Assembly: GCA_965221955.1 (NCBI GenBank)
Contig: CBDCTA010000002.1
Coordinates: forward strand, 64,001 to 128,000
DNA: 64,000 nucleotides
Direction: 5' to 3'
Source of the DNA: Gammaproteobacteria bacterium
GTDB taxonomy: Bacteria > Pseudomonadota > Gammaproteobacteria > UBA4575
Within the stretch, counting starts at the first letter, position 1; the number at the start of each line of letters is the position of its first letter. The notes beneath the pieces were generated by a model that saw only the letters and a list, made by a program, of their open reading frames with translations, searched no databases and was not told the origin of the DNA. Positions 16,943 through 62,452 of the stretch are shown here, in pieces. The translations under genes and the position numbers were made by a program.

Positions 16943-17086
16943 AGATTATGGTTGTATCTCGCTATATATCTACTAAATACGCATAGGACCTTGTTTTGCC
17001 AATCTAATTAATTGTTAAATTCAAATTATTTTTAAGTATAATGGCTTTTGTCTCAATAAAATAACTACAATAAATTGGAGGCAAAG

Positions 17087-18451
17087 ATGGATAATGAGCT
17101 GGCTAGCTTAGGTGTCATCTTCACAGAATTTTATTACTGGCTTACAGTAGTGATAATGTTTCTTATACATGTAGGTTTTTGCATGTATGAAGTTGCCGTT
17201 TCAAGGCACAAAAATCATATGCATACTTTAATGAAGAACACCATGGTAATCCCATTGGTGACAATCACTTTTTTCTTTTTTGGGTGGTGGATATATTTCG
17301 CATTTCCAAATGGCCCTGGAATTATTGGCGGATTAATTGATGCCCCACATGCAAAAGGATGGAGTCAATTAATGGGACCACATATGGGAGGAAGTGGTGA
17401 TCCTGATGGTTGGGCACGCATTAATGGAGTGTTTTGGGCAGCTTTTCTTTTGTTTTCGTGGACAGCAGCATCGATAGTATCCGGTTCGGTAATAGAAAGA
17501 ATACGTTCAAATGCATTCTGGTTACTTGCAGTATTAATTGGATCTGTATTTTGGATTATTGATGCCGCTTGGGGTTGGCATGCAGATGGTTGGATGGTAA
17601 AGCTGTTGGGCTATCACGACGCTTATGCATCTGGAGTTATCCATGCTATTGCAGGAGGTTTTGCATTAGGTATTTTATTTGTATTGGGGCCGCGAATTGG
17701 GAAGTTTAGAGAAGATGGCACGCCGCGGGTCATCCATCCACGAAATCCTTGGCTCTATACTATTGGTCTTTTTATTCTGTATACAGGATTTTGGGGCTTT
17801 TATGTGGCATGCAACATTCCAATGTGGGACATTCAAAGTGGTGATGGTGTATTTTATTCAGCAACTAATATTTATTTAGCACCCACAACACTTTCTGCTA
17901 TCACTGTTAATTTTTTAATGTCACTTTCGGGTGGCTTATTGATGGGATACATTGTTTCTAAAGGCGATGCATATTGGACATATTCTGCTGGCCTGGCTGG
18001 AATTATTGCAGCGTCTGCAGGAAATGATTTATATCACCCAATACAAGCACTACTAGTTTCAGCTGCTGGTGTCTTCGTTATCTATAAATTACATTACTGG
18101 GTTGAAAGTAAATTTAAAATTGATGATGCAGTAGGTGCAGTAGCAGTTCATGGCTATGCAGGGTTCTATGGAGTGGTGATTGCAGGATTTATTTTATGGG
18201 GATATCCATCATCCCCAAATCCTGAATATGCGAGTGTTAACCCCCTAGGTCAATTTATAGGAGCACTAATAATGTTTGGACTCCTTGGGTTTCTACCTGG
18301 TTGGATATTTGCCAAAATTTTAAATACGTTTGGAGTCTTACGAATTCCTAGAGAGATTGAGTTAATTGGACTTGATACTGCCGAGAATATTCAACGTTTG
18401 AAGGATGAGCAAGAAATTCTAAAAGCTGAACATGAAGCGATAAACAAATAA
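17087..18451 (+). CDS. amt: Divergent Amt-family (methyl)ammonium transporter
   Basis: GF.MYE, IVSG...ER, HD...SGVIH, LGPRIGKF, DDAVGAVAVHG; GGAGG RBS before ATG 17087. Confidence 0.9.
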   Translation: MDNELASLGVIFTEFYYWLTVVIMFLIHVGFCMYEVAVSRHKNHMHTLMKNTMVIPLVTITFFFFGWWIYFAFPNGPGIIGGLIDAPHAKGWSQLMGPHMGGSGDPDGWARINGVFWAAFLLFSWTAASIVSGSVIERIRSNAFWLLAVLIGSVFWIIDAAWGWHADGWMVKLLGYHDAYASGVIHAIAGGFALGILFVLGPRIGKFREDGTPRVIHPRNPWLYTIGLFILYTGFWGFYVACNIPMWDIQSGDGVFYSATNIYLAPTTLSAITVNFLMSLSGGLLMGYIVSKGDAYWTYSAGLAGIIAASAGNDLYHPIQALLVSAAGVFVIYKLHYWVESKFKIDDAVGAVAVHGYAGFYGVVIAGFILWGYPSSPNPEYASVNPLGQFIGALIMFGLLGFLPGWIFAKILNTFGVLRIPREIELIGLDTAENIQRLKDEQEILKAEHEAINK

Positions 18452-19424: not shown

Positions 19425-20081
19425 CTAAATTGGGAACATATTTAATAGAGTAGTTGATGAATAAAGCATTTTCATTCCTACTAAAATGGCTAGAGCACCT
19501 GTAAAAACTTTAAAATATTTAAAAGGTATAAATTTAATTTTACGATGCAAAGGCATCGTCATAAGAATAGAAAGGAAAGACATGCAGATAATCAAGCCAA
19601 TACTAAATAAAACAATATAAGTAAACTTTAAATAAATTGAATCAATCGTTGTGGTAAGAAGCGCAACTATTAAACCAGAACCTGCTGCGCCGTGTAATAA
19701 ACCAATACTTAGAGACTTTAAGGTGAGCCGCGTTTTATTGTTATCTTCTATAACCGTGTTTGTCGAATATTTATTTTCTTTTGTAGAAAAAAGGATTTTG
19801 GCTTTTTTAATCACATCGATTCCCATCCAGACAAGTACAGCACCTACTAAAAGCTCAAAAAAGACGAAGACACTTTTATCAATTTCAATCTGTAAACCCA
19901 TCAAAATCATACTGAAGAGTAATAATGTAATTGTATGACCAATTCCCCATATGGCGCCTTGCTTAGCAGTGGCAGATACCGAATTAGATTCTGTAGAAAC
20001 CATTAATACAGCTGCAATATGATCTGGTTCGAAGGCATGACGGATGCCTAAGGTAATGGCTAAGAGTAGTAAGACAGTCAT
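19425..20081 (-). CDS. Nickel transporter-like urease accessory protein (UreH/NiCoT-like)
   Basis: RHAFEPDH, WGIGHT and GLLHGAAGSG motifs; last gene of the urease cluster. Confidence 0.82.
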   Translation of the reverse strand: MTVLLLLAITLGIRHAFEPDHIAAVLMVSTESNSVSATAKQGAIWGIGHTITLLLFSMILMGLQIEIDKSVFVFFELLVGAVLVWMGIDVIKKAKILFSTKENKYSTNTVIEDNNKTRLTLKSLSIGLLHGAAGSGLIVALLTTTIDSIYLKFTYIVLFSIGLIICMSFLSILMTMPLHRKIKFIPFKYFKVFTGALAILVGMKMLYSSTTLLNMFPI

Positions 20082-20088
20082 ATGCTTT

Positions 20089-20898
20089 TTATTTTTTTCT
20101 AATATTGGGTTTGATTCCAACCAATGATTCTCTAATGATCAGCCATGCTTGAAGCATTGTTTTCTTAATTGCATCACCATCAGTTGCTAAAAATTTAATT
20201 ATAATCCCGCAATTATTCGGAAATTCAGAAACACCCCCATAAATTTCTGGATTGGTGCTAATGTATTTTTGCAGTGGTTCAAACAATTCATTATAAGTGC
20301 CTGACCGATTTACAATAGAGATCGTACCCATGCCAATATAATGTTGATTTGCTTGCAAAAAGTTTTTTGGATTAATTAAATAAACATCTTTTGCCAATAA
20401 TTTGTTATTTTCAGAATAAATTTGTAAATAGCTATTTAATTTGTTGAATAAATGATCTTTACCTTTAAGGAAATGAAGTAAGAACGCATCAGAAACGACT
20501 GCGGTACTTGTTTCATCTGCATATACATTAATCGTCGAGCTTAAAGTAGATTTTGGGAATAGAATCAAAGGGTCTGACACGTATTCCGTGTAAGCATAAT
20601 CTTTTGCATTTACATTTACAGTTTGATGAGCAATGCCATTTGTCATTCCATGAACGATGGTTGAAGCCTGTGTTGTTACATGGCTAAATGAATTGGGGTT
20701 TGCTACAACATTCGTAGTTAGATTTTCATTTTCATAGATTCCTCCAGATGCAGATTGAATATAAATATTAGCCATTCCAGGTGGATCATTTTCAAAGTAT
20801 TGCGTTCTGCAAACATGAAAAGGGTAGGAGGCAAATTGATTCTCAAGATAGGTTTTACCATCTACACTCTTGGAGAATTCAAGTGATAAATTACTCAT
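20089..20898 (-). CDS. ureD: Urease accessory protein UreD
   Basis: SGG and TTQAST motifs; operon context. Confidence 0.85.
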   Translation of the reverse strand: MSNLSLEFSKSVDGKTYLENQFASYPFHVCRTQYFENDPPGMANIYIQSASGGIYENENLTTNVVANPNSFSHVTTQASTIVHGMTNGIAHQTVNVNAKDYAYTEYVSDPLILFPKSTLSSTINVYADETSTAVVSDAFLLHFLKGKDHLFNKLNSYLQIYSENNKLLAKDVYLINPKNFLQANQHYIGMGTISIVNRSGTYNELFEPLQKYISTNPEIYGGVSEFPNNCGIIIKFLATDGDAIKKTMLQAWLIIRESLVGIKPNIRKK

Positions 20899-20922
20899 TC
20901 TTATTTTTTTGTATGTTATAAG

Positions 20923-21549
20923 TTACTTGAACAATACGTTTTCAATAATATGTTCAGCGACCTCTTTAATCCCATCACCCGTTTTACAATTGGTTAGTAC
21001 CAAAGGTTTATTGCCTCTTACTTGTTGACCTTCTTTAACCATTAAGTCCACATCTGCACCGACATATTTAGCGATATCTATTTTATTAATCACTAGCAAA
21101 TCAGATTGCACAATCCCTGGGCCTCTTTTACGTGGAATGTCATCACCTTCCGAGGTGTCAATAACAAACATCCAATAGTCAACAAGATCTAATGAAAATG
21201 TTGATGCAAGATTATCTCCACCACTTTCTATTAAAATTAAATCAAGGTCTGCAAATTCTTGATCCAAGCGGTCGGCGGCTTGAATATTTAAAGTTGGATC
21301 TTCACGGATAACCGTATGAGGGCATGCGCCTGCTTCTACTGCAACGACACGTTCAGGTGCAAGCAAACCGGATTGCTGCAACCGTTTAGCATCTTCTCTA
21401 GTTACTAAATCATTGGTAACAATTGCAAGCTCATTTCCTCTTTCTTTAAAATATGGAATTAACTGCTCAATTAAAGCCGTTTTGCCTGAACCAACAGGTC
21501 CGCCAATACCTACTCGTGCAGGCCCGTTTGTTTTTGGTACTGCGTTCAT
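20923..21549 (-). CDS. ureG: Urease accessory GTPase UreG
   Basis: [23 protein letters not shown]. Confidence 0.95.
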
Positions 21550-23258
21550 CGGAGCATGTAACGTTGTGTGAGTGGAAGCGTTTTAGCAGGCTCACAAGTT
21601 GCTAACTCACCATCTACAAATACATCAAAGGTTTCAGGATTAACGGTTACCTTAGGACAACAATCATTATGTAGCATATGGCTTTTATTCAGTTTGCGTG
21701 TACCGTGTGCAGGTAAATTCACTTTTTGAAGTTGTAATTTTTCTCCAATATTTGCATCAACTGCTGATTGGTTAACAAAATTTGCACTTAAATGCTGTTT
21801 GGCGTTTCCAAAAGCGCCCCATTGAGGTCGCATTGCAAGTGGTTCGCATGTCATTAATGATGCCGCACTGTCTCCCATTGCTGACCAAACAATAAATCCG
21901 CCTTTAATGATCAATTCTGGTTTAATACCAAAAAACTCCGGCCTCCATAAAACGACATCACCGATTTTTCCTTTCTCTAACGAACCGATATAGTCATCAA
22001 TGCCAAAAGTACGTGCAGCATTAATCGTATACTTTGCGATAAATCGCTTAATTCGTTCATTGTCACCACGTTTGGTAGTTTCTTCCGCAAGTCTTCCACG
22101 TTGGTCTTTCATTTTGCTTGCAAGTTGCCATGTTCGACAAATGACTTCATTAATACGACCCATGCCTTGGCTATCGGATCCCAACATTGAGATTGCACCA
22201 AGATCATGCATTACATCTTCTGCGGCAATGGTTTGTGCACGAATTCGACTTTCTGCAAAGGCAACATCTTCAGGAATAGCAGGATTTAAATGATGACACA
22301 CCATGGTCATATCTAAATGTTCGTCAAACGTGTTAACGGTATATGGATTTGTAGGATTGGTAGAAGAGGGGAGACAATTATATTCGCCTGCTACACGAAT
22401 AATATCGGGAGCATGTCCACCACCTGCACCTTCAGTGTGATACATATGTATGGTTCGACCATTAATGGCAGCTAAAGTGTTTTCCACAAAACCACTTTCA
22501 TTCAATGTATCAGTATGAAGTTGTACTTGATAATCTAAATCATCGGCAACGGATAGGCAGGTATCGATGACCGCAGGCATTGCGCCCCAGTCCTCATGAA
22601 TTTTAAGTCCTATGCAGCCTCCCGCGAGTTGGTCAATGATAGATCGAGGTTTGGATGTATTGCCGCGCCCTAAAAATCCAAAATTAATGGGCCATTGTTC
22701 CGAGGCCTGTAACATCTTGCCTACATTCCAAGCACCGCCACAATCAATACCAACTGTGATGGGACCAAGTGATCCACCAATCATAGTAGTGATGCCCGAA
22801 CTTAATGCGTGTTCGCATAACTGAGCACTATCAAAGTGAACGTGTACATCAATTCCTCCAGGAGTAGCAATTAATCCTTCGGCATCGCGAACCGTTGTTG
22901 CAGCTGCGCAAACTAACTCAGGATGAACGTTGTCCATCGTGGCTGGGTTACCAGCTTTACCTACGCCAACAATTTTTCCTTCTTTAATTCCAATGTCTGC
23001 TTTGACAATCCCTAAAACAGGGTCAATTACTAATGCATTACTAACCAACATATCGAGTGACCCTGCTGCACTGTCATAACCTGGTGTTAAACCTAAGCCG
23101 TCACGTAAAGTTTTGCCGCCACCGTGTAAGCATTCATCTCCAGGCACTGCATAGTCATGTTCTACTTCCGCGAGTAATGATGTATCTCCTAATCGAACAG
23201 CATCTCCCTTTGTAGGTCCATACATTACGGCATATTCTTTTCTAGAAATCTTAATCAT
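21546..23258 (-). CDS. ureC: Urease alpha subunit homologue (divergent)
   Basis: [47 protein letters not shown]. Confidence 0.93.
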
Positions 23259-23260
23259 GG

Positions 23261-23959
23261 TTATGCCCCTTTAAATCCGCGAGTTTTGGCTAAATGTAAA
23301 GCTTCTTGTTTTTTCACTTCACTCGATGTTGAACCATTAGTTAAGCTGTTTAATCCGTAAATTTCTCCAGCGCCTCCAAAATCAACCAATGCGACTTCTT
23401 TGCTTTCTCCTGGTTCAAATCTAACCGCCGTTCCAGCAGGAATATCTAAATGCTTTCCAAATGCATCTTCACGTTTGAAATCTAATCCAGGGTTCACTTC
23501 AAAAAAGTGGAAATGACTTCCTATTTGTACAGGGCGGTCACCTGTATTTAATACTTTCACTTTAATTGATTTTTTACCTTCATTAATTTTTACATCACCT
23601 TCACCAGGTATAATCTCTCCTGGGATAACATCATCCTTTTTAGATTTTTTCTTGCCTGCACGTATAGGTTCATGCACAGTCACCAACTTTGTTCCATCTG
23701 GGAAAGTTGCTTCAACTTGAAGCATATGCATCATATCGCCTACACCTGGCATGACGTCATCCGTGCTGAGTAAGGTTGAACCATAACTAATCAATTCTGC
23801 TACAGAACGTCCTTCACGTGCGCCTTCTAATATTTCATCTGCGATGATAGCTGTAGCTTCAGGATGATTTAGTGCTAAGCCTTTTGCTTTTCGTTTTCTG
23901 GCTAGCTCTGCGGCAGTGTAAATTGTTAATCGTTCTAATTCAGTTGGTGTTAACAGCAT
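23261..23959 (-). CDS. ureAB: Fused urease gamma/beta subunit
   Basis: [21 protein letters not shown], then [17 protein letters not shown] and GTAVRFEPG. Confidence 0.95.
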
Positions 23960-23980
23960 GGTTTTCCTCCGAATTCATTC

Positions 23981-24661
23981 TCAATTAGCAAACAATCTAG
24001 AATCTGCATGTTCATGACGCATCGATGCAATGTCAGCGAACGGTGTAAAAGCATGTATCTCTTCAATTGCAGGAATGGGCCATTGTGTAATTTCTAGTAT
24101 CAGCGATCGAAATGTAGTTAAACTATTTTGGCAATCAATATGTCCAATTAAACCAAGTCGTAAAGCAGCGCCTAAAACTGAAACACAAAAGTTATAAGCG
24201 GACAGGATCAAAATAGATTTTTTAGATAAGCCAAGAGAACTCCAAATCAAACCTTGTGATATGGACAAATGTCCAAGTGCATTATTTTTGTAAATAAGGC
24301 TTAGGTATTTCTGTGCGGCTGCGTTGTCTAATTTACTATATGTAGTTAGTAAGGCATTCCCTAATCTTTTTGAACCTTCTCGTAATTCACTCGCAAGCGT
24401 CATGCATTCAATCAGACGATCCATTTCAATTACTTTTTCTAAATCATTACCATTTTCAATGGTGTGTGCTAAAACGACTCGTTCAAACGGACCCCATCTT
24501 TCTACGAGTTGATTTTCAATGAAATCATTTACGCCCGTAATAGAAGTAACAATTTCATCTTCTTTTAACATTTCCAAACCCCAAGAAAATGACACAGCAC
24601 CTGATGGGAAAAAGCTGTCCCCATGCTGCAAAAGCGTGAGTAATTGTTCTTCTTCAGTCAT
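23981..24661 (-). CDS. ureF: Urease accessory protein UreF
   Basis: DSFFPSG...SWGLE and C-terminal RHE....RLFAN; ATG 24661 overlaps the ureE stop. Confidence 0.9.
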   Translation of the reverse strand: MTEEEQLLTLLQHGDSFFPSGAVSFSWGLEMLKEDEIVTSITGVNDFIENQLVERWGPFERVVLAHTIENGNDLEKVIEMDRLIECMTLASELREGSKRLGNALLTTYSKLDNAAAQKYLSLIYKNNALGHLSISQGLIWSSLGLSKKSILILSAYNFCVSVLGAALRLGLIGHIDCQNSLTTFRSLILEITQWPIPAIEEIHAFTPFADIASMRHEHADSRLFAN

Positions 24662-25103
24662 GGTCTGCAATAGTAATTTTATTTTGGTCAAAGAAATCTT
24701 TTAATCGATCAAGATAAATTTCTTTTGGGCTATCTAATGCAATATCAAGATGTTTGTTTTCAAATTTAACACGCCAGTGCATATTGCCAGCGAAATAGCC
24801 AAGTTCGATTGCAGTTGAAATATCTTTAGGCTGTAGTGATAACCATTGATCTTCAGCCATTTTTACAACAATAGCGCGATCAGTTTCTAATAATAATACT
24901 GCGCCATTTGATAATTTATTTTCGCGTGAAATAACTACAGCACAATCTGTACCTTGATCCGTTTGAGCGCGGAAACGTCTACGCTGTAAATTAGCGTGAT
25001 CTAAAACAATATATTCGACTTTATTTTGATGTGATAAATCGTGAAGTTGACCTGATAGATTCGAATCATGTGAATGACCAAGGACTTGATTAAGTTGAAT
25101 CAT
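24654..25103 (-). CDS. ureE: Urease accessory protein UreE, no His-rich tail
   Basis: R.RAQTD.G and LGY..GNMHW (Ni-binding GNxH). Confidence 0.85.
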   Translation of the reverse strand: MIQLNQVLGHSHDSNLSGQLHDLSHQNKVEYIVLDHANLQRRRFRAQTDQGTDCAVVISRENKLSNGAVLLLETDRAIVVKMAEDQWLSLQPKDISTAIELGYFAGNMHWRVKFENKHLDIALDSPKEIYLDRLKDFFDQNKITIADHD

Positions 25104-25231
25104 TTTTGTTTTTTATACTATCCAATATTAAGGCTGAGCAATTAATACTGATGATTAATTAACCATGATTTAATAGCGGTATTACTAGCTTTATCAAACT
25201 ACGTGTAGCTAATATACCTATTATTAAAAAT

Positions 25232-25264
25232 TAATTCATAGTAAAATAAGTTTATTGATAGAAA
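25232..25264. promoter_or_regulatory. Tandem candidate operator pair (20-bp period)
   Basis: Minus-strand TTTCTATCAATAA (25252-64) and TTACTATGAATTA (25232-44) resemble the pair at 58116-58148. Confidence 0.5.
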
Positions 25265-25422
25265 CTATAATATTTTTTAATAATTTGAGTTGTTATAGAT
25301 TGATTTGGATAAAAAACGATCAAATTATGATCTTCCTGAGAAGTTATTTAACTTCAAAAATTTGAAAATGTAAGTGTTACTTAAACAATAAAATATAAAT
25401 ATAAGGAAGGGGCCTGATTCAA

Positions 25423-25849: not shown

Positions 25850-26758
25850 ATGTGCGGCATAGCAGGCATCATGCTTAAGGACTCATCAGACTATAAAACC
25901 GGTGAGGCTTTAGTGAGTATGTTAAATGGTTGTCAACATCGTGGCCCAGATTCTACGGGCTTTGCTTTATATGGTAGCTCACAAGAAAACACATTGAAAT
26001 TAAGACTATTAGTGGGTCAAGGTGAAATTGGAATAGCAGCAATTACTCGAATTAAACAGTTATTGAAAGAAAATGATGCATCGATAATTGAGGATGAACA
26101 TATTGGAGAAACCTATCGTGCAACGATCAATTACTCTGGCGATATTCAAAAATTTTCCTATGCACTAGAGAATGCAGCAAAAGTTGTTTCAATAGGAAAT
26201 AGTTTAGACATTATTAAAGATGTAGGAAGTGCGGAAGATGTAGATGCTAGTTATGACATCCGAAAATATAAAGGTTCCCATGGTTTGGGGCATGTACGAC
26301 TAGCAACGGAATCTGACGTTAAGCCAGAAGCTGCACATCCTTTTTGGGCCACTGGATTTGCAGATGTTGCTATCGTACACAATGGACAAATCACAAATTA
26401 CTGGAAAATGCGTCGTAGATTAGAACAGCGCGATTATGAATTTCGTACTGATAACGATAGCGAGCTTATTGCAGTTTATCTTGCAGATAAATTATCACAA
26501 GGAATTAAGTTAAAAGATGCACTTAAAACATCAATTGAAGATCTTGACGGAACATTTTCATTTTTAGTTTCTACCAAAGATGAAATTGGATATGCAAAAG
26601 ACCACTTAGCCGTAAAACCTATGGTGATGTATGAAACTGAAGACATGGTGGCGATTGCTTCCGAAGAGGTTTCGCTGAATAAACTATTTCCAGGGCAGGC
26701 CCTTAATACAAAAGAACCACCACCAGGAACCTATAACACATGGTCACGATCGATCTAG
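25850..26758 (+). CDS. Class II glutamine amidotransferase (MgsA/GlxB paralogue)
   Basis: N-terminal MCGIAG, HRGPDSTG, GHVRLATES, HNGQITN, DSE. Confidence 0.9.
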   Translation: MCGIAGIMLKDSSDYKTGEALVSMLNGCQHRGPDSTGFALYGSSQENTLKLRLLVGQGEIGIAAITRIKQLLKENDASIIEDEHIGETYRATINYSGDIQKFSYALENAAKVVSIGNSLDIIKDVGSAEDVDASYDIRKYKGSHGLGHVRLATESDVKPEAAHPFWATGFADVAIVHNGQITNYWKMRRRLEQRDYEFRTDNDSELIAVYLADKLSQGIKLKDALKTSIEDLDGTFSFLVSTKDEIGYAKDHLAVKPMVMYETEDMVAIASEEVSLNKLFPGQALNTKEPPPGTYNTWSRSI

Positions 26759-28701
26759 GAAAAACTTCCGTAAGAGAAGGCAATGAAATAATTCGACAAT
26801 GCGGTAAAGACGGAGAAGATGTCGAAGTAATCAATCCGGATGCACGCCATCACATTGGCGTAGGTTTAATTCATCCCATTACAGTAAAAGTAAAAGGTTC
26901 TGCAGGTTATTTCTGTGCAGGATTAAGTGATGCTGCGCACTTTGAAGTGGAGAGTAATGTAGGTTGGGGTGTGGGTGACAACATGTACTCAGGTTCAGTA
27001 ATAGTTGGTGGGAATGCAGGTGCTATTCCTGGAGTTGCCATACGTGGAGCCGATATAGTAATTCGTGGAAACATGGGTTCTCGTGCAGGTCAAGTTATGA
27101 AGGCCGGAACTTTATGTTGTGAAGGTAACGCAAACTTTATGGCTGGTTATATGATGTATGGAGGGCGCATCATTATATTGGGGGATTCAGGCGAAAAAGT
27201 TGGCGAGGATATGTCTGCAGGTGAAATATTCGTAGGTGGGAAAGTTGAAGATTTAGGTTCTGACGCAGAGCTTACAGATATCGATAGTGCAGAAATAGAT
27301 GAAGTAAAGGAATTTTTGGAACGTTATAAAATTCCATTCAAAGGAAGTTTTCAAAAAGTCGTTAATGCAGGAAAGAAACTACGTTACGCAACATCTGAGC
27401 AACAAATGCGTAGCATTCCGTTTTTCTCATTTTCAGGCGCATCTGATTATTGGAATCCAAAAATCCAAGAAGATTTATATATTAAGTCTCAAATTGGACG
27501 TTATCGTATTCGTGGTTATGGTGGTGCACGACCATTACCTCATTTTTCAGACATAGCATTTAAAAAAGATTTATCTATGGCGGGTGGCGATGTAGATGTT
27601 GTTTCTAAAGTAAAAATGCGCACGGAAATCGGCGGCATTAATGGCGCAGAACCTCTTAAATTAAGTATGCCAGTCATGATTGCGCCAATGAGTTATGGTG
27701 CTCTAAGTGCATCAACGAAAAGAGCAATTGGACTCGCTTCTACGTTATCCGATATTGCAGAAAATACAGGTGAAGGGGGTATGAGTGATGCGCAACGTGG
27801 AGCGGCAAAGCAGCTAATCTTTCAAATGCTTGGAGGGAGGCTGGGTTGGAATATTCATGATATGAATCGTGCTGATGGTTTAGAAATTTATATTTCACAA
27901 GGGGCTAAGCCTGGTTTAGGTGGGCAGCTAATGGCTAAAAAAGTAACGCCAGAACTCGCAAAGATAAGAGGAATTCCTGCAGGTATTGATTTACGTTCAC
28001 CTTCTCGTCATCCAGATATTTTAGGTGCTGATGATTTAGTTATTAAAGTAGAAGAATTACGTGAAGCAACAGGTTATCGTTTACCTGTTAGTATCAAGCT
28101 TGGTGCAGGACGTGTCCGTGACGATATAAAAATTGCAGTAAAGGATGGATTTGATTTTGTAGAACTAGATGGTATGCAAGGTTCCACTGGTGCGGGAAGT
28201 GCAGAAGTAATCGACTATGTAGGTATACCGACTTTACCTGCCATTATCGAAGCATTAAATGCATTAGATGAGATTGGAAGGCGTGATGATATACAAATTG
28301 TTCTCATGGGCGGCATACGCGATGGTGTAGATGCGGCTAAAGCATTATGTTTAGGTGCAGATGCTGTAGCGTTAGGGACTTCTACTATTATTGCAGGTGG
28401 ATGTATTGCATGTATGCAGTGTCATGTTGGTCAATGTGTTACTGGTATTGCAACGCAAGATCCTGAACATGAAAAACGTTATGAGCCTGAAGTTGAAGCA
28501 CAAAACATTCATCGTTTCTTAGAAAGTGTTCGTTGGCAGATTGCTACTATTGCAAATGAACTTGGCTATAACGATGTAACACAGTTAAGTCGGGACGATT
28601 TGGTGGCGTTAACGCCCGAAGTTGCAGAGATGACGGGCTTGCCATATGAGCCCCAATATGGAGATGCAGACCTTGATATTAAAGTGAGGGCAGCAGGATG
28701 A
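26740..28701 (+). CDS. Fusion of GXGXG (GltB C-terminal) domain and FMN-binding glutamate synthase domain with Fe-S motif
   Basis: G-rich beta-helix repeats, then APMSYGALS, NTGEGG, SQGAKPGLGG and CIACMQCHVGQCVTGIATQDP. Confidence 0.88.
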   Translation: MVTIDLGKTSVREGNEIIRQCGKDGEDVEVINPDARHHIGVGLIHPITVKVKGSAGYFCAGLSDAAHFEVESNVGWGVGDNMYSGSVIVGGNAGAIPGVAIRGADIVIRGNMGSRAGQVMKAGTLCCEGNANFMAGYMMYGGRIIILGDSGEKVGEDMSAGEIFVGGKVEDLGSDAELTDIDSAEIDEVKEFLERYKIPFKGSFQKVVNAGKKLRYATSEQQMRSIPFFSFSGASDYWNPKIQEDLYIKSQIGRYRIRGYGGARPLPHFSDIAFKKDLSMAGGDVDVVSKVKMRTEIGGINGAEPLKLSMPVMIAPMSYGALSASTKRAIGLASTLSDIAENTGEGGMSDAQRGAAKQLIFQMLGGRLGWNIHDMNRADGLEIYISQGAKPGLGGQLMAKKVTPELAKIRGIPAGIDLRSPSRHPDILGADDLVIKVEELREATGYRLPVSIKLGAGRVRDDIKIAVKDGFDFVELDGMQGSTGAGSAEVIDYVGIPTLPAIIEALNALDEIGRRDDIQIVLMGGIRDGVDAAKALCLGADAVALGTSTIIAGGCIACMQCHVGQCVTGIATQDPEHEKRYEPEVEAQNIHRFLESVRWQIATIANELGYNDVTQLSRDDLVALTPEVAEMTGLPYEPQYGDADLDIKVRAAG

Positions 28702-31226
28702 GCACAGTTTATGACATTAATCGAATTTTAATGCCTGAGGTGCCGCCTGATTATGAAGATCACACGGCAGATGTAAATTATGTTCCCGCTCCATGTCAGG
28801 TGGCGTGTCCAATCGGCACCGATGCACCTTCTTATATTGGTTATATTTGGGAAGGGAAGTTTGAAGAAGCATTTGAAGCCATAACGGCAACCAATCCTTT
28901 TAGTTCTATTTGTGGTCGTGTGTGCGATGCGCCTTGTGAACCTGCATGTAGGCGAACCGATAGTGATGGACCGTTGCAAATCCGTAATTTAAAACGCTTT
29001 ATCATGGATGAGCTTGGTGCTACCTATGTGCCCAAACCAGTAGAAGTTAAGCAGTCTAAAACTGTAGCCATAGTGGGTTCTGGTCCTGCTGGTCTGACTG
29101 CAGCGAATGATTTGTGTGCTGCTGGGTTTGAAGTACATGTATATGAAATGACAGATCGTTTGGGTGGGATGATGATTTGGGGTATACCTGCATTTAGATT
29201 ACCACCAGATATCATTGAGGAAGATATCAAACGTTTGCTGAAACGTTTCCCAGGTTTACATATTCATTTAAATACAGGGTTAGGTAAAGAAATTACATTA
29301 AATGAGCTTAAAGAAAAGCATGATGCCGTTTTATTAACCATTGGCTCGTGGTGGGGAAAACCAATGGGGATTCCCGGCGAAGAAGGGAATAAAAATGTTG
29401 TTGATGGAGTAAGTTTTTTACGACATGTAAATGCTGGAGAGCGCCCTTCATTACCAGAAACAGTTGTTGTAGTGGGTGGGGGAGATGTTGCTATGGATGC
29501 TTGTCGAGCAGCATTACGATTACCAGGTTGCAAAAATGTAAAAGTTATTTATCGGCGTGGTCCACATGAAATTCCTGCTAGAAAAATTGAGCTTGAAGGA
29601 GCAATTGAGGAAGGGATTGAGTTTATATATTTTACTCAACAAACTGCTGTTGAAGAACAAAACGGAAAATTAATTCTCAAATGTGTTAAGACAAAATTAG
29701 GCGAAAAAGGTGAAGATGAACGACTTCAGCCTGAAATTGAAGAAGGAAGTGAACACGAAATTGAATGTGGAATGGTGATTGCTGCGGTTGGTCAAAAAGG
29801 TGAGTCTGAAGAATTAGCAAAACATAATCTAATGGATGTCGATCGAGTGCAAACAGATTGGGAAACGATGCGCACAAAAGACGCAAAAGTTTTTGCAGCA
29901 GGAGATGGTGCATTTGGAGGTTCTACAATTGTTATGGCTATGCAACATGGGCAACGTGCTGCGTACTATGTGAAATCATTTTTATATGGCATTGAAAACC
30001 CAATCCCCTATCGGACACCTTATCGAACACGGCGAGTACCTGTTGCACAAGATATAAAATGGGAAAAATTTAATCCACACCATCCTGAATTTTTTGGAGT
30101 AGGTGATGATCCTGTAAGTTTTCCTGAAATTGAAGCAACCTACGATTGGGACACTGCGCGCAATGAAGCATCACGGTGCTATCGTTGTGATGCGGAAACG
30201 GGTTCGCCAGACTATTCCGTCGCACATCGTGAAGATATTTTTTCTATGGCACGTACAAATCCAGCAGATCATATGAAGTTGAAATCTATGTTGCGAAAAC
30301 GATTACGTACTCGCACGAATCCTTTTCCTGAAAATCGTGCACCTAATTTAGATGACATTGTATTTTTACCGGCTAACTTATCACGTCTTGTAATTGATCC
30401 GTATCGAGAAGCGTGTAATGTCACTATGAATCTTGCCAATAAGCTAGATATGCAACATCCATTTCTAGTAACGGGTTTTGACAATGAAGCGCAAGAAATA
30501 TTTAAAGCAATGAGTCAAGGATGTGCTATATCGCATACACCTTATTTAGGTAATAAGAACCCTGGTAATGAAACGAGTTGGTTACAACTCAGTTCTAATT
30601 TGTCGGATCAAAACAAAGATACAGCAGGGTATATCTATTATCTAGACAAAGATGAAGAACCTGTACCATTAACACCAAATACAGATCATCAAATAGTTGG
30701 TTTAGCAATTTCTACGCGCATTAACCTTGAACAAGTCATTGCTAGTTCAATTGATAATAAGCATGATATTTTGGTTTTAGATGGAAGCGGTGATCTTTAT
30801 CGTAATTGGTCTGAATTAGAATCTGCACCAGATTTTAGTATATTGCGAGATACTATCCGTATTTTGCGCAAAATGAAAAAAGAAGAGATGATTGACATTG
30901 TTTATTTTGGGGGCGTGCGTTCTGGCACAGATGCAGCAAAATTAATTGGGTTAGGTGTAAATGCAGTGGTGATGGGAGTTTGTGCTGGACTTGCCATGGG
31001 TGGTGAAGTTATTAATAATAATCTTGTGTTTAGCTCAAATTATTCTGACACTGATCGCATTCAAGGATTAGCTAATATTGTTAAAGCAAATTTAGGCGAA
31101 GCATCCATGATGGCGCGTTGTACTGGAAAAACTAATTTATATAATGTAGAGCCGGAAGATTTGAGTGCTGTTACCAAGGAAACATCTAAGGTCACAGGGA
31201 TTCCGCTTTCTGGAGGATGTGTATAA
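28698..31226 (+). CDS. GltD-like FAD/Fe-S oxidoreductase fused to a degenerate glutamate-synthase barrel
   Basis: PCQVACP, CGRVCDAPCEPAC, GSGPAG, GGGDVAMD, YRRG, RCYRC; C-terminal LDDIVFLPA, GGVRSGTDAAK..LG, MARCTGK..EPEDL. Confidence 0.85.
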   Translation: MSTVYDINRILMPEVPPDYEDHTADVNYVPAPCQVACPIGTDAPSYIGYIWEGKFEEAFEAITATNPFSSICGRVCDAPCEPACRRTDSDGPLQIRNLKRFIMDELGATYVPKPVEVKQSKTVAIVGSGPAGLTAANDLCAAGFEVHVYEMTDRLGGMMIWGIPAFRLPPDIIEEDIKRLLKRFPGLHIHLNTGLGKEITLNELKEKHDAVLLTIGSWWGKPMGIPGEEGNKNVVDGVSFLRHVNAGERPSLPETVVVVGGGDVAMDACRAALRLPGCKNVKVIYRRGPHEIPARKIELEGAIEEGIEFIYFTQQTAVEEQNGKLILKCVKTKLGEKGEDERLQPEIEEGSEHEIECGMVIAAVGQKGESEELAKHNLMDVDRVQTDWETMRTKDAKVFAAGDGAFGGSTIVMAMQHGQRAAYYVKSFLYGIENPIPYRTPYRTRRVPVAQDIKWEKFNPHHPEFFGVGDDPVSFPEIEATYDWDTARNEASRCYRCDAETGSPDYSVAHREDIFSMARTNPADHMKLKSMLRKRLRTRTNPFPENRAPNLDDIVFLPANLSRLVIDPYREACNVTMNLANKLDMQHPFLVTGFDNEAQEIFKAMSQGCAISHTPYLGNKNPGNETSWLQLSSNLSDQNKDTAGYIYYLDKDEEPVPLTPNTDHQIVGLAISTRINLEQVIASSIDNKHDILVLDGSGDLYRNWSELESAPDFSILRDTIRILRKMKKEEMIDIVYFGGVRSGTDAAKLIGLGVNAVVMGVCAGLAMGGEVINNNLVFSSNYSDTDRIQGLANIVKANLGEASMMARCTGKTNLYNVEPEDLSAVTKETSKVTGIPLSGGCV

Positions 31227-38498: not shown

Positions 38499-39194
38499 CT
38501 AGATTGTTAGATGTTGCTCTACTAATTCTTCGGTTAATTCACTTATTGGCCCTTGTGCAACAGATCGTCCGATATCCATGATGACAAACATATCTGCCAG
38601 TTGTTTTGCTATCTTTATGTGTTGCTCGGTCAGAACTAATGTCATTCCCATCTCTTTATTCAAGTGGTGTAGAGTGTTTTGAATTTCTTCTACTATATTT
38701 GGCTGAATACCTTCTGTAGGTTCGTCAAGTAATAATACTTTAGGGTCAGTAGCTAGAGCACGCGCAACCGCTAGTTGTTGTTGTTGACCACCTGATAGTA
38801 ATCCGGCGCGCTTATCTAGATTATCAGCAAGATAGGGAAATAATTTTAAACATGAATCGGGTAGTTTATTCTCATTATCATTTCTTGCAAATGTACCAAG
38901 TACAATATTTTCGCGTACACTAAATTTACCTAGTATCCTTCGACCTTGAGGGACATAGCCTAGCCCTGCATGTGATCGTAGATGTGTTGCTTTTTTAGAA
39001 AAATCTTCTCCATTAATTTTCAGTGTTCCCTCCATGCTAGTAGTAAGACCCATTATAGTTTGAAGTAAGGTTGTTTTACCTACTCCATTTCTACCCAATA
39101 CACATAGACATTGACCTTCTTGTAAAGAAATACTTACGTCTTGGATAATGGGTGTTTTTCCATAATAGGAAGTAACATTTTCAAGTTCTAACAT
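38499..39194 (-). CDS. ABC ATPase, UrtE/LivF-like
   Basis: GRNGVGKT, LSGGQQQQL, LDEPTEGIQP. Confidence 0.92.
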   Translation of the reverse strand: MLELENVTSYYGKTPIIQDVSISLQEGQCLCVLGRNGVGKTTLLQTIMGLTTSMEGTLKINGEDFSKKATHLRSHAGLGYVPQGRRILGKFSVRENIVLGTFARNDNENKLPDSCLKLFPYLADNLDKRAGLLSGGQQQQLAVARALATDPKVLLLDEPTEGIQPNIVEEIQNTLHHLNKEMGMTLVLTEQHIKIAKQLADMFVIMDIGRSVAQGPISELTEELVEQHLTI

Positions 39195-39195
39195 G

Positions 39196-39939
39196 TTAGT
39201 TAATTCCTTCCGTGCCTAGATACACTTCTTTGACTTTTGGATGCTGCTCAATTTCTGATAAGGTTCCTTCAGCAAGCATTTTTCCTTGGTGCATTACTGA
39301 AATTACATCTGCAATGCTTTTTACAAAGGACATATCGTGCTCAACTACAACTAGAGTGTGATCACCTTTTAATTCTTTAAAAATCTTAGATGTTTTTTCT
39401 GTTTCTTGTTCTGTCATTCCTGCCGTTGGCTCATCCATTAACAACAATCTTGGTTTTTGCATCAACACCATGCCTATTTCTAGCCATTGTGTTTCACCAT
39501 GTGAGAGCAAGCCTGCAATATCATCTAAGCGATTTCCTAAGCCAGCTAATTCAATAATTTCATTAAAATGTTTTTTTCCTTTTTTATTAGAAAAAGGATT
39601 CATGTTTTGAAAAGGGCCACGCTTTTCTGTGAGCGCAACTTGAAAATTTTCACGTACAGTGAGTTCTTTAAAAACAGCTGGAATTTGAAACTTACGCCCA
39701 ACTCCTAAGCCTACAATTTGTCTTTCAAGTAGTTTAGTGATGTTTTTACCATCAAAATGTACAGTCCCTGAGGTAAGCTTTTGTCGACCAGTTATTAAAT
39801 CTAAAGAAGTAGTTTTACCTGCACCATTAGGACCAATTAAACAACGTAACTCACCTTCATTTACACTGAAATCAAATCCATTAACGACTGAATAATCATT
39901 ATAAGTTTTTGTAACTTCTTTTAATTCTAGTATTGCCAT
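39196..39939 (-). CDS. ABC ATPase, UrtD/LivG-like
   Basis: GPNGAGKT, RKFQ.P, LSHGE.QWLEIGM, VVEHDM. Confidence 0.92.
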   Translation of the reverse strand: MAILELKEVTKTYNDYSVVNGFDFSVNEGELRCLIGPNGAGKTTSLDLITGRQKLTSGTVHFDGKNITKLLERQIVGLGVGRKFQIPAVFKELTVRENFQVALTEKRGPFQNMNPFSNKKGKKHFNEIIELAGLGNRLDDIAGLLSHGETQWLEIGMVLMQKPRLLLMDEPTAGMTEQETEKTSKIFKELKGDHTLVVVEHDMSFVKSIADVISVMHQGKMLAEGTLSEIEQHPKVKEVYLGTEGIN

Positions 39940-41018
39940 TATGCTGCCTGCTTGATTCCGTTGTTGTTACTAGAAAACTTACCTAAAATTGTTTCAAATA
40001 GGCCAGTAAGACCTTTTGGAAGAAATAAAACAACAGCAATGAAAACTGCGCCAAGAATTATAAGCCATAGTTGTTGAAATTCATCGCCAGCATAGCTTTG
40101 GCCTAAATTAATTAAGAACGCTCCTAAAATTGCGCCAAGTAATGAAGTACGTCCACCTACTGCAGCCCAGATTACCATTGAAATACTTAGTGTAATTTCC
40201 ATTGATGTCGGCGAAACATATTGGACTATCATCACATACAAAATACCAGCGCAAGCAGCAATAAAGCCAGAAAGAGTGAATAATACAGTTTGATAATATG
40301 CAACGTTGTAACCTAAAAATCGTGCACGCTCAGGATCATCTCGCATCGCTTGCACAATGAGGCCAAATTTTGTATGTAGCAAAAATTTTGTGCCTAAAGT
40401 TAGAAAAGCTAAGAAACCTAAACAAATCCAATAAGCGGTACTGCTATATGGATCTATTTGTGTACCAAATATTTCAAAAGGAGAGGGAGGTGAAATGCCA
40501 TTAAAACCAGCCGTAAAAGGTTGCATATCGTATACAACTGCATACCAGGCAGCTAACATGGCTAAAGTCATAATGGCGACAAACACGCCAACGACTCTTG
40601 CTTGAAACATCATATATCCAAAAAATAAAAAGAATAAAGTAGGGATGCCGAGTGCTAAAGTTAATCCCATTGGGGTTGACCAGAACGGTTCCCAAACTAA
40701 AGGTAATGTTTCTAGCTCATTCGTCAACATAAAGGTTGGGATTGGGTCGGACTCAGGATCTTGAAACTGCATTTGCATAGTGGCACCCATTCCGTATGCA
40801 CCCATGCCAAAAGCAATGCCTTGCCCCAAACTTAATATTCCGCCATACCCCCAGACTAGTGACACTGAAACGGCAGTGATGGCAAAGACCAGGTAACGTG
40901 CATATTGGTTTAGCGAAAAAGGGTTATCAAATATAAAGGGTAAAAGTCCTAACAATACAAATATTGCTATATAAACTGCCCATTGTGCTTTGCGGTTGTG
41001 ATAAAGGTTCCCATTCAT
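39939..41018 (-). CDS. ABC permease, UrtC-like
   Basis: WGYGGILSLGQG..FG.GAY, A.RD...R..FLGY, VIW.AVGGR. Confidence 0.9.
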   Translation of the reverse strand: MNGNLYHNRKAQWAVYIAIFVLLGLLPFIFDNPFSLNQYARYLVFAITAVSVSLVWGYGGILSLGQGIAFGMGAYGMGATMQMQFQDPESDPIPTFMLTNELETLPLVWEPFWSTPMGLTLALGIPTLFFLFFGYMMFQARVVGVFVAIMTLAMLAAWYAVVYDMQPFTAGFNGISPPSPFEIFGTQIDPYSSTAYWICLGFLAFLTLGTKFLLHTKFGLIVQAMRDDPERARFLGYNVAYYQTVLFTLSGFIAACAGILYVMIVQYVSPTSMEITLSISMVIWAAVGGRTSLLGAILGAFLINLGQSYAGDEFQQLWLIILGAVFIAVVLFLPKGLTGLFETILGKFSSNNNGIKQAA

Positions 41019-41060
41019 GTTGCTAATTCTCCATCTGCTATTGTTATTTTCATTTAATGC

Positions 41061-41963
41061 TTAGCGTCTTGTAGCTCCTTCTGAAATGAGTCCTTGAGGA
41101 CGAAACCTGAGAAACACAACAATTAAAGTGAATAATATGAAACGCGCAAATGTTTCATTGGTAAAGTATGAAAAGATTGAGCTTAGCTCGCCAAGAATGC
41201 CTGAGCTGAACATGCTGCCAACAAGTCCAATTCCACCCACCACAACAACAAGAAAGGCTTCGACAATATATCCCATTCCCATATCAGGAAATAATGTTTT
41301 TAGTGCACCAAACAATGCTCCGGCTACACCTGCTAATCCTGCTCCATAAGCAAAGGTTAAACTGTAAATTTTATTCGCATCAATGCCAAATGATGCTGCC
41401 ATTTCTTTGTCTTGCATTACGGCGCGTACTCTGATCCCTAAAGTAGTTTTATACATTAGGTACCATGTCACGGCTCCGATCGCTATTGCAAATATAATAA
41501 TGAAAAGCCGTACACCCGATAAGTGAATGAAATTAGCTTCTATTTGGAAATCAAGCCATTTAGGGACACCAACATATTTAGGTTCGCCGCCAAAAATTAA
41601 ACGAATCCCTTGTATTAAAATTAGAGACAACCCCCATGTTGCTAAAAGTGTATCTAGCGGGCGCTGATACAGTGTCCGGATTATCCCTCGTTCTATTGCC
41701 CATCCAATTAATGCCATCACAATAAACGCCAGAGGTAAGCAAAGAAGAAATGGAACACCTAAAAAATGTTGAAAAACATAGGTTGTATATGCGCCTAGCA
41801 TTATGAATTCGCCATGCGCCATATTGATGACTCCCATGGCACCATAAATGATGGTCAAGCCTAGAGCTGCAATGAAAAATATACTGGCGAGGCTAACACC
41901 TATAAATAATGAATTAAGAAATGGATAGAGAGAAAAGGGAGTCCAAAAATCATGTACGCTCAT
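41061..41963 (-). CDS. ABC permease, UrtB-like
   Basis: GVINMAHGEF.MLGAY, RPLDTLLATWG.SL, RPQGL. Confidence 0.9.
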   Translation of the reverse strand: MSVHDFWTPFSLYPFLNSLFIGVSLASIFFIAALGLTIIYGAMGVINMAHGEFIMLGAYTTYVFQHFLGVPFLLCLPLAFIVMALIGWAIERGIIRTLYQRPLDTLLATWGLSLILIQGIRLIFGGEPKYVGVPKWLDFQIEANFIHLSGVRLFIIIFAIAIGAVTWYLMYKTTLGIRVRAVMQDKEMAASFGIDANKIYSLTFAYGAGLAGVAGALFGALKTLFPDMGMGYIVEAFLVVVVGGIGLVGSMFSSGILGELSSIFSYFTNETFARFILFTLIVVFLRFRPQGLISEGATRR

Positions 41964-42087
41964 TACCTATATTCCTCCTGAAAATAACTTGAGTACTGAA
42001 AGAGCCAAGGCTATAGCTCTTATTTAGTTATCCAGTTTTATGTTTTTATTTGAACGAGCACGTAATAATTATTATTTTGTGCTCTAA

Positions 42088-42180
42088 TATTTTTTCCATC
42101 ACAGCTCAAATAAAGAAGCGATGGAAAAAATAACTAAGCCCACATGATACGGCGACTTATTCACAGTCGCCGTATATGTG
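42088..42180. other. Two hairpins between the binding-protein and permease genes
   Basis: ATACGGCGACT/AGTCGCCGTAT within 42141-42180; TATTTTTTCCATC/GATGGAAAAAATA at 42088-42132. Confidence 0.65.
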
Positions 42181-42197
42181 ATCAAAAAAACACCTTC

Positions 42198-48359: not shown

Positions 48360-49088
48360 TTAGACTTCTGGGGCAAATGCGGCTAATGCAGAGTGTCCTA
48401 TAATTTGACCATTAAATTCTTGCATGGCTTCAAGCACGCAATCCCAACAATATTCTGCTGAAGCACTTTCAACTAGTACTAAATAATTAGTTAATGCATT
48501 GAGATCATTGCGAATAATTATTGCACTGATGCGTGCCAGAGAAGTTTGTGCGACCATATTATTTCCAAACTTATTAGTGCGTAAATCAATTGCGCATAGT
48601 TTTGAAAACATATCTGGTGTGAAAATTCCGGAAATCGAAAAACACGCATGACTTTCTTGGCGTGGCATGATAAACCCGCATGCTTCAGTACTTTGCGTGA
48701 AATCCTGATGCCATGTGTCTTCAAGTGTACTCGGTACATTTGTTTCATGTTTAATGTTGTCTAAAATCAAAATATCGTTACTTCCAAGTCTTGCGATTAC
48801 ACAGCCATTCGAATCATTAAAGGAAGTATTTATGTTTGCTGGAATTTGGATATTATTTTTTATTAGCCAGTCGCACGTACCAAAGCCTTTGAAGCCAATT
48901 CTTTGTATATAGCTTAAATCACTTAGAGCTAAATTATTTGCAAAGTTAATCTCTTCCTTTGGGTCTGTTATGGAAGAAACGACAGCATAATTGTTCCTTT
49001 CTGACCAAGTGATTTCTGGCTCGTCAAACTTTCGATATTGAAAACTACGTCGTGGATATTGAGTAGGACTTATTACAGAATCATTCAT
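48360..49088 (-). CDS. mgdD: N-methylglutamate dehydrogenase subunit D (SoxG-like)
   Basis: DLS...R.GFKG, KLCAIDLR, AQT..AR; last gene of a soxBDAG-like set. Confidence 0.8.
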   Translation of the reverse strand: MNDSVISPTQYPRRSFQYRKFDEPEITWSERNNYAVVSSITDPKEEINFANNLALSDLSYIQRIGFKGFGTCDWLIKNNIQIPANINTSFNDSNGCVIARLGSNDILILDNIKHETNVPSTLEDTWHQDFTQSTEACGFIMPRQESHACFSISGIFTPDMFSKLCAIDLRTNKFGNNMVAQTSLARISAIIIRNDLNALTNYLVLVESASAEYCWDCVLEAMQEFNGQIIGHSALAAFAPEV

Positions 49089-49093
49089 AGTTG

Positions 49094-52000: not shown

Positions 52001-52023
52001 AATAAGATTGTTAATAAATTCGA

Positions 52024-52311
52024 CTACTCAGTTTTTTTAAACGCAACTCTCTGCATATATAATTCATGTGCAGGATAGGTTTTAATAATTTCTTCGGTCA
52101 CTGTATTACGTTCAGCGATGAACCAATAAGATGTGGGAACATGCATCCACCATTCACGTACAACACCTTTAGTATTATTTTCCATGAACAAATATTCAGC
52201 CCATTCGCGATCTGTTCCATTAACTGGATCTGGTATTGATTTTACTTCTCCACCACAAATAAATTCGGAGATGTTACGTAAACCATTCAATGGACAGGGC
52301 ATTAATTTCAT
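52024..52311 (-). CDS. mgdB: N-methylglutamate dehydrogenase subunit B (SoxD-like)
   Basis: CPLNG.RNISEF..GGE, EWW.H, RNT.T.EI. Confidence 0.88.
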   Translation of the reverse strand: MKLMPCPLNGLRNISEFICGGEVKSIPDPVNGTDREWAEYLFMENNTKGVVREWWMHVPTSYWFIAERNTVTEEIIKTYPAHELYMQRVAFKKTE

Positions 52312-52333
52312 CGTAATAGAATTTTTTTAAATA

Positions 52334-56431: not shown

Positions 56432-56447
56432 AGCAAAACACCCTTGT

Positions 56448-62450: not shown

Positions 62451-62452
62451 TT

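Follow-up and report, generated by a model that had tools for sequence, protein, structure and literature searches.

Which enzyme is encoded by three translationally overlapping genes of glutamate-synthase type, and does it serve the methylamine pathway or ordinary glutamate synthesis? The three genes, here called the triad, occupy positions 25850-31226 (+ strand) of a 64,000-nt stretch, the window, from contig CBDCTA010000002.1 of a gammaproteobacterium of the UBA4575 lineage (GCA_965221955.1). The best explanation is that they form one heteromeric flavo-iron-sulfur enzyme of the glutamate synthase (GltS) family, combining catalytic parts of the MgsABC/GlxBCD lineage with a reductase of its own. 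We tentatively propose that this enzyme is an NADPH-dependent N-methylglutamate synthase (NMGS) using gamma-glutamylmethylamide (GMA) and 2-oxoglutarate. We infer the substrate (GMA, not glutamine), NADPH as the donor, the cluster type and the reaction as a whole.

Gene 1 begins with MCGIAG, which supplies the Cys1 of class-II, N-terminal nucleophile (Ntn) amidotransferases, and matches PF13522 (3.6e-20) and PF13537 (4.2e-20); the GATase_2 profile (PF00310) had no match in it at E ≤ 1e-3 in the Pfam search. It shares 19 nt (26740-26758) with gene 2, where a GXGXG domain (aa 35-181; PF01493, 1.9e-14) precedes a flavin mononucleotide (FMN)-binding Glu_synthase domain (aa 303-611; PF01645, 1.6e-92). 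The FMN/2-oxoglutarate barrel of gene 2 is the proposed synthase site, and a QGAKPGLGG loop lies at aa 387-395. Gene 2 in turn overlaps gene 3 by 4 nt (ATGA, 28698-28701). The N-terminal half of gene 3 is a GltD/NfnB-like reductase, with Fer4_20 (PF14691, 4.5e-22) and Pyr_redox_2 (PF07992, 8.2e-31) domains; NF009410 and NF009454 align to aa 21-500, TIGR01317 and TIGR01318 match below their cut-offs, and with all three triad proteins the NCBIfam models stay below their cut-offs. Its N-terminal cysteines (C33, C37, C72, C76, C80, C84) would hold two clusters, its flavin adenine dinucleotide (FAD) site is GSGPAG (aa 127-132), and a CYRC sequence (aa 494-497) is conserved. The nicotinamide site combines GGGDVA (aa 260-265) with YRR (aa 285-287), the latter taken by us as a marker of the 2'-phosphate of NADPH. 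NfnB, GltD and DPD head the Foldseek matches of the full-length gene 3 model. The original prediction, made from the window alone, had described an amidotransferase, a GXGXG-FMN fusion with an Fe-S motif, and a GltD-like protein with GGGDVA/YRR fused to a barrel, in overlapping genes; Pfam matches, motifs and overlaps all agree with it.

Relatives were gathered in a homologue scan using one genome per species, in which 400 stretches matched and 323 encode a relative. Counts over loci (gene content, neighbours, conservation) refer to the best 80 of these 323 triad loci, and whole-genome presence counts to 50 triad genomes, with 400 sampled Gammaproteobacteria genomes as the class background.

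The Fe-S motif of gene 2, CIACMQCHVGQC (aa 555-566), aligns three cysteines with the [3Fe-4S] ligand positions of GltB and adds a fourth, and all four are invariant in the 60/60 aligned proteins of the gene 2 family. The canonical GltB of the same genome has three, as C-x5-C-x4-C. Ferredoxin motifs for 3Fe and 4Fe clusters are the basis for assigning a cluster type from the number of cysteines, and by this analogy the extra residue of C-x2-C-x2-C-x4-C could make the triad cluster [4Fe-4S]. Uniqueness of the four-Cys motif to the triad was considered and rejected: the pattern occurs in 29/89 relatives of at least 360 aa among the matches listed, including two ~1500-aa GltB-like proteins and ferredoxin-domain proteins such as P0134 and P0141, nameless in the matches, that we take to be of the archaeal type of split glutamate synthase. 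These proteins (~41-47% identity) resemble the triad in having separate small subunits, in the four-Cys pattern (P0134, P0137, P0141 and others) and, for P0141, in placing GXGXG ahead of the FMN barrel. They differ in that P0134 and P0141 carry a Fer4 domain, of which Pfam finds no match in gene 2, whereas the triad would draw its electrons from a dedicated GltD-like NADPH module.

The C-terminal ~300 aa of gene 3 form a degenerate barrel. They align by BLASTP to the MgsC of the window (aa 711-839, E 2e-16; aa 545-594, E 2e-06) and can also be aligned to the FMN barrel of gene 2, in keeping with what had been predicted for this part of the protein. In a joint alignment the barrel lacks the MSYGALS, NTGEGG, QGAKPGxGG and DGxxGGTGA loops common to gene 2, MgsC and GltB. 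It retains GGVRSGTDAAK (aa 738-748; window 30909-30941), invariant in the family and presumably of the loop type that binds FMN phosphate in FMN triosephosphate isomerase (TIM) barrels, and it has further invariant D, W, Q, E and R residues elsewhere. Since the reductase half dominated the Foldseek matches of the full-length model, the barrel was modelled separately; it folds with an AlphaFold2 (AF2) predicted local distance difference test (pLDDT) score of 88.7, and its top matches in the PDB are FMN TIM barrels (flavocytochrome b2, glycolate oxidase) at a template modelling (TM) score of ~0.6. The barrel may have kept the ability to hold a flavin or some other phosphorylated ligand. The central domain of GltB (PF04898) has no Pfam match in any of the three triad proteins, against 1.2e-119 for the true GltB of this genome, and the degenerate barrel is presumably its equivalent. 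The original prediction held that the four GltB domains plus GltD are rebuilt here in a new order: the permuted, split GltS-like layout stands, and the fourth domain must be amended, being an FMN-type barrel rather than PF04898. DPD and PreTA likewise join a GltD-like NADPH/FAD/2x[4Fe-4S] module to an FMN-type TIM barrel on one chain, with DPD among the Foldseek matches over both parts; in the triad, however, that barrel is of Glu_synthase type without substrate loops and the catalytic FMN barrel lies on another subunit. The likeness is an analogy of architecture only.

That the three genes make one complex is indicated by the gene overlaps, a natural fusion and a predicted interface. The fusion, P0124 (1486 aa), runs end to end from GXGXG and Glu_synthase through Fer4_20 and Pyr_redox_2 to the degenerate barrel, with 53% identity to the barrel region of gene 2 and 42% to gene 3 over aa 25-840. 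The nicotinamide site of P0124 has other residues in place of YRR (local sequence FFLETRE), and the cofactor preference of the fusion may differ from that of the triad. The model of the gene 2/gene 3 complex has an ipSAE interface score of 0.84, with the best control at 0.00, in line with the earlier idea of a complex; the mark used is attained by 58/80 solved complexes and 2/110 mismatched pairs, counts that are only rough as own alignments were used. Structures of GltS alpha-beta complexes have been solved, and resemblance to them may account for part of this result. At least 84% of contacts are common to the runs, and partner pLDDT is at least 84. The interface pairs gene 3 residues 503-563 with the FMN domain of gene 2, where it covers residues 551-557 adjoining the Cys motif. 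In the monomer model of gene 3, aa 499-573 and 807-842 are both the most conserved and the least confident parts (pLDDT <50 at aa 499-528 and 534-543 of the linker), and they coincide with the predicted interface; the complex model has the linker wrapping over the gene 2 FMN domain. An apparent second kind of fusion, of the amidotransferase to gene 2 in L045, L080 and L083 (open reading frames of 939-963 aa), was dismissed as read-through in calling open reading frames: no alignment to the amidotransferase was obtained for the N-terminal extensions of ~297 aa.

Is this enzyme, then, a glutamate synthase of the usual kind? Like GltBD (EC 1.4.1.13), it has an Ntn amidotransferase, an FMN barrel with 2-oxoglutarate loops, a GXGXG beta-helix, Fe-S cysteine ligands in the same place, and GltD-type Fer4_20 and FAD/NADPH domains. 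Unlike GltBD, it is split among three genes; its GXGXG domain is N-terminal to the barrel on a 653-aa chain instead of C-terminal on a ~1500-aa GltB; its amidotransferase gives no match to the GATase_2 profile; the Pfam central domain is missing, with a stripped FMN-type barrel fused to the reductase instead; and it coexists with canonical gltBD. The genome (2.69 Mb in 29 contigs) encodes, on another contig, a canonical 1522-aa GltB with central domain and a 496-aa GltD directly downstream, and canonical gltB (PF04898) is found in 46/50 triad genomes. We therefore reject the triad as the housekeeping glutamate synthase (glutamine-2-oxoglutarate aminotransferase, GOGAT) or as its replacement. 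A second, glutamine-dependent NADPH-GOGAT isozyme, made of an archaeal-type split alpha subunit and a fused beta subunit and recapturing ammonium under nitrogen starvation (from urea, amides or methylamine breakdown), is a different matter. Cys1 amidotransferase, FMN barrel with QGAKPGxGG, Fe-S cysteine motif, GXGXG and a GltD with an NADPH-type motif are all at hand, and GXGXG before FMN together with four cysteines recurs in P0141 and P0134. Such an isozyme would nevertheless be redundant with gltBD, here and in the 46 genomes just named, and the triad amidotransferase and barrel are nearer to MgsA and MgsC than to GltB (for the gene 2 FMN domain, 233 bits to MgsC vs 137 bits to the GltB of this genome). 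With the neighbourhood evidence given below, we consider the isozyme less likely than not, though a serious competitor of the NMGS reading.

The closest paralogs of the triad in this genome are the MgsABC proteins (GlxBCD type; EC 2.1.1.21), which share with it a GlxB-type Cys1 amidotransferase, the GXGXG domain and the FMN barrel. A resemblance of this kind had been predicted and amounts to 36% identity between gene 1 and MgsA (E 8e-52), 31% between gene 2 and MgsB and 39% between gene 2 and MgsC. This is far from orthology, true MgsC proteins being 74-95% identical even between classes and abutting gmaS, with the triad barrels at 40-45% identity to MgsC. The triad also differs in fusing the B and C parts in the order GXGXG-FMN, in the invariant four-Cys motif of its barrel, and in the added GltD-like NADPH/FAD/Fe-S reductase with degenerate barrel. 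The MgsC of the window has an insertion at the motif site and no Cys motif, and no GltD-like gene adjoins mgsABC, just as the original prediction had it.

In the proposed mechanism, the Cys1 amidotransferase would hydrolyse GMA, the GmaS product, to glutamate and methylamine. The methylamine would pass to the FMN barrel of the GXGXG-FMN subunit and condense with 2-oxoglutarate to N-methyl-2-iminoglutarate, which reduced FMN would convert to N-methylglutamate. The FMN would be reduced again by electrons running from NADPH through FAD and the 2x[4Fe-4S] of the GltD-like module to the Cys4 cluster, while the degenerate barrel and the conserved linker would dock the reductase on the FMN subunit, much as the central domain does in GltB. 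GmaS, the triad and N-methylglutamate dehydrogenase would then make up a cycle like that of glutamine synthetase (GS) and GOGAT, bringing methylamine nitrogen into glutamate without release of ammonium. A reductive path is proposed because transfer to 2-oxoglutarate needs two electrons, and the triad has a reductase and an Fe-S site where MgsABC has neither. It is possible, though on balance we doubt it, that the triad is the missing reductase-equipped synthase of such a cycle for methylamine (a GMA:2-oxoglutarate methylaminotransferase that oxidises NADPH), replacing MgsABC in many marine and soil bacteria, with a second flavin perhaps held in the degenerate barrel as part of the electron path. 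If the proposal is right, methylamine nitrogen could be assimilated without ammonium and GS-GOGAT, at a saving of ATP.

It could be objected that the classical synthase reaction requires no external reductant: Pollock and Hersh reportedly obtained N-methylglutamate and ammonia from glutamate and methylamine without one. The triad might accordingly be a redox-neutral NMGS like MgsABC, whose reductase would only set or repair the redox state of FMN, or an enzyme of the reverse reaction, oxidising N-methylglutamate or glutamate and reducing NADP+. The 842-aa reductase subunit is, however, kept at 58-87% identity across phyla, translationally coupled, and fused to the synthase subunit in one lineage, which argues for a stoichiometric rather than an accessory electron path and makes a redox-neutral enzyme highly improbable. 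On the substrates, PMC5023235 describes NMGS as acting on glutamate and methylamine, and PMC6237917 describes its redox cofactors as unknown. If the triad is a reductive NMGS, its built-in NADPH reductase would make the question of reductant and stoichiometry, left open in PMC6237917, directly testable.

Gene order and co-occurrence favour a role of the triad in the methylamine pathway, a role that we likewise put forward tentatively. Adjacency to gmaS was counted where gene 3 is followed by at least 1500 nt of DNA, which holds for 69 loci: in 20 of these a GmaS ortholog (68-79% identity to the GmaS of the window) follows within 2-310 nt on the same strand. MgdA (at least 55% identity) is encoded in 9/76 loci and MgdC in 7/76. 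Beside the triad, 11 loci have the regulator type with helix-turn-helix (HTH) and cupin domains that flanks mgsA in the window, and 10 have Amt. Linkage of this operon-like kind to gmaS, to mgd and to the regulator is frequent among related loci and recalls MgsABC, but in the window gmaS lies beside mgsABC and 22 kb from the triad. Three arrangements stand out: (i) in L020, L021, L024 and L043, gmaS follows the triad and is itself followed by folD, a DAO-family gene and mgdABCD. (ii) In the Burkholderiales loci L051 and L063, the triad sits between mgdA and mgdBCD, followed by a GS-like gene of 45% identity. (iii) A Gemmatimonadaceae metagenome-assembled genome (MAG; G044) and a Latescibacterota MAG (G027) have a GS-like gene (47-48%), MgdA (59-60%) and the triad within 13 kb. 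The clusters of (ii) and (iii) span 7-13 kb. Type-I glnA, by contrast, was found beside the triad in none of the 80 loci, which speaks against the glutamine-dependent isozyme.

Over whole genomes, gmaS (E ≤ 1e-150, a threshold at which the matches in triad genomes have 57-94% identity to the GmaS of the window) is present in 35/50 triad genomes vs 25/400 sampled Gammaproteobacteria (24/399 without G346), so that the co-occurrence with gmaS raised in the original prediction does appear. Among the other 15 triad genomes, two have high-identity gmaS fragments at contig ends, ten have GS-like proteins of 43-48% only, and three have neither. Within the class sample, gmaS is found in 4/6 triad genomes vs 21/394 others and abuts the triad in G182, G354 and G369. 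MgdA of at least 59% identity is encoded in 21/50 triad genomes. Related genomes are not independent, and these co-occurrence figures are to be read as contrasts, not tests.

The distribution of true MgsC complements that of the triad: it is encoded in 8/37 gmaS-bearing triad genomes vs 16/20 gmaS-bearing genomes lacking the triad (20 queried, G346 excluded), and in 0/5 of the other triad genomes of the class sample. In seven gmaS-bearing triad genomes (G006, G016, G029, G030, G031, G041, G045) the triad barrel is the sole MgsC-like match at E ≤ 1e-50. Such complementarity points to the triad as a frequent substitute for MgsABC, and is again contrary to a GOGAT isozyme.

A third family complicates the comparison. 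It has an MgsC-like barrel (49-56% identity) clustered with a GS-like gene of its own (498 aa) and with GlxB-like and GlxC-like genes (L043:25-3435, also L035), and occurs in ~31/50 triad genomes. Being present also in 16/20 gmaS-bearing genomes without the triad, usually alongside true MgsC, it looks like a separate system rather than an alternative synthase. Its GS-like ligase has 27% identity to GmaS; a GntR/FCD regulator and Amt are often nearby.

Several observations weigh against an NMGS function for the triad. Most of the loci (49/69) have no adjacent gmaS, which would suit a glutamine-dependent isozyme; three triad genomes (G008, G020, G037) have no GmaS-like match above 42% identity, in addition to the ten with only a 43-48% GS-like protein. 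Because no cofactor or loop of a true GOGAT has been lost, the sequence is compatible with glutamine as substrate. In the window itself the triad lies 22 kb from gmaS, flanked by the urease cluster and Amt on one side and by urt and a dimethylformamidase (DMFase)-like gene on the other, a setting that fits ammonium recapture, and the canonical mgsABC-gmaS-mgd cluster coexists with it, so a second NMGS is not obviously needed. The 49-56% MgsC-like paralog could itself be the NMGS in the ~31/50 triad genomes that have it. Finally, the genomes are mostly MAGs and related to one another, which leaves absences and counts soft.

Some of the same facts would fit a reductive aminotransferase that uses a different gamma-glutamyl-alkylamide or a different amine. 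Ethylamine and other small amines come into question, as do methylamine or ammonia taken up free, with no amide as donor; gmaS would then be only one of several partner ligases. The ten genomes with a 43-48% GS-like protein as sole partner candidate, sometimes clustered with the triad (G032, G039, G044, G027), would be explained in this way, and this genome already has mgsABC for GMA. In four Aestuariivirga-like Alphaproteobacteria (L058, L073, L077, L089), genes for a trimethylamine-dehydrogenase-like protein (Oxidored_FMN plus Pyr_redox_2, ~680-735 aa), an MttB-family methyltransferase and an Amidohydro_3 protein lie just upstream of the triad; they agree with other amines as substrates, and are another tie to methylated amines. 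In four Acidiferrobacteraceae-like MAGs (L031, L032, L037, L069), a conserved block after triad and gmaS holds an arginase-family gene and a class-I GATase/peptidase C26 gene of gamma-glutamyl hydrolase-like type, which would also suit a different amide; IlvD/Edd, MobA-like, enoyl-CoA hydratase and PhyH genes belong to the same block. Yet a genuine GmaS ortholog (68-79%), with mgdABCD and folD after it, is the neighbour found most often and most closely placed, and no other ligase type is as recurrent, so that we rate a different amine substrate as quite improbable.

The triad, whether or not it proves to be an NMGS, is a conserved family. The kept loci come from Gamma- and Alphaproteobacteria, Burkholderiales, Planctomycetota, Latescibacterota and Gemmatimonadaceae, at 58-87% identity, nearly all from MAGs, plus Aestuariivirga litoralis KCTC 52945. 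The arrangement is conserved well beyond what chance would give, with gene 2 in 78/80, gene 3 in 76/80 and gene 1 in 63/80 loci, the last count being limited by contig ends, which many loci reach. The best 120 matches listed for gene 3 are nearly all of 837-860 aa, with 62-100% identity over at least 98% of the query; their record names are generic where present ('FAD-dependent oxidoreductase', 'glutamate synthase', 'beta subunit-like oxidoreductase'). Under such names the triad genes are invisible to surveys that score the methylamine pathway by mgsABC. The full-length gene 3 type is found in 6/400 genomes of the class sample, this one included. Neither triad nor gmaS was found in the complete genomes G200 (same genus) and G367 (same family), the closest in the sample, so both look like accessory genes of the lineage. 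A literature search, with most subscription journals outside its reach, found nothing on this architecture or on a GltD-like reductase tied to the N-methylglutamate pathway, and part of it brought up solely papers about canonical MgsABC. We regard the triad as a member of the GltS/NMGS family whose subunit arrangement is new and whose electron supply is probably new as well. The family is rare yet widely spread, occurs in nitrogen-scavenging contexts, and bears on the use of methylated amines by marine and soil bacteria.

The window as a whole is a dense nitrogen-scavenging region (Table 1).

Table 1. Parts of the triad and its neighbours in the 64,000-nt window
Feature	Position	Strand	Detail
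Amt	17075-18451
Nickel transporter and urease genes, ureDGC(AB)FE	19425-25103	-
SnoaL-like protein, 133 aa	25423..25824	+	PF12680 8.9e-07; ends 26 nt 5' of amidotransferase start
Gene 1, class-II (Ntn, Cys1) amidotransferase subunit, GlxB/MgsA type, 302 aa	25850..26758	+	PF13522, PF13537
Gene 2, GXGXG-FMN fusion, 653 aa	26740..28701	+	PF01493, PF01645
Fe-S cluster motif in gene 2	28402..28437	+	C555-x2-C558-x2-C561-x4-C566
Gene 3, reductase-barrel fusion, 842 aa	28698..31226	+	PF14691, PF07992, barrel alignment
GltD/NfnB-like reductase module of gene 3	28698..30188	+	Fer4_20 aa 31-105, Pyr_redox_2 aa 122-418
Conserved linker of gene 3, aa 498-550	30189..30347	+	Low pLDDT in monomer, many invariant columns
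Degenerate FMN-type (beta/alpha)8 barrel, gene 3 aa 551-842	30348..31226	+	BLASTP to MgsC, alignment, structure model
DMFase-like amidase, 799 aa	35070-37469	-	PF20254
urtABCDE	38499-43529	-
mgdABCD-like genes, gmaS, mgsABC	48360-58083	-
gmaS	53688-54995
mgsC	55100-56524	-
HTH-cupin regulator flanking mgsA	58240-58911	-
Urea transporter (PF03253), AmiC/AmiR, CN_hydrolase amidase	within 60267-64000

A search for sigma-54 promoters with the consensus TGGCAC-N5-TTGC (at most 2 mismatches) gave 56 matches vs 52.9 expected, with none in the intergenic stretch 25104-25422 upstream of the SnoaL-like gene. The SnoaL-like gene may open the triad operon; among the relatives, L010, the nearest locus, is alone in retaining it, at the same position and with 87% identity. 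The genome also encodes four further stand-alone Glu_synthase paralogs. Three of them (L003-L005; C29:336112-337077, C2:5794-6780, C20:2646-3602) have 503-558 aa, a three-Cys motif and ~30% identity to gene 2, and the fourth, on C5, is partial.

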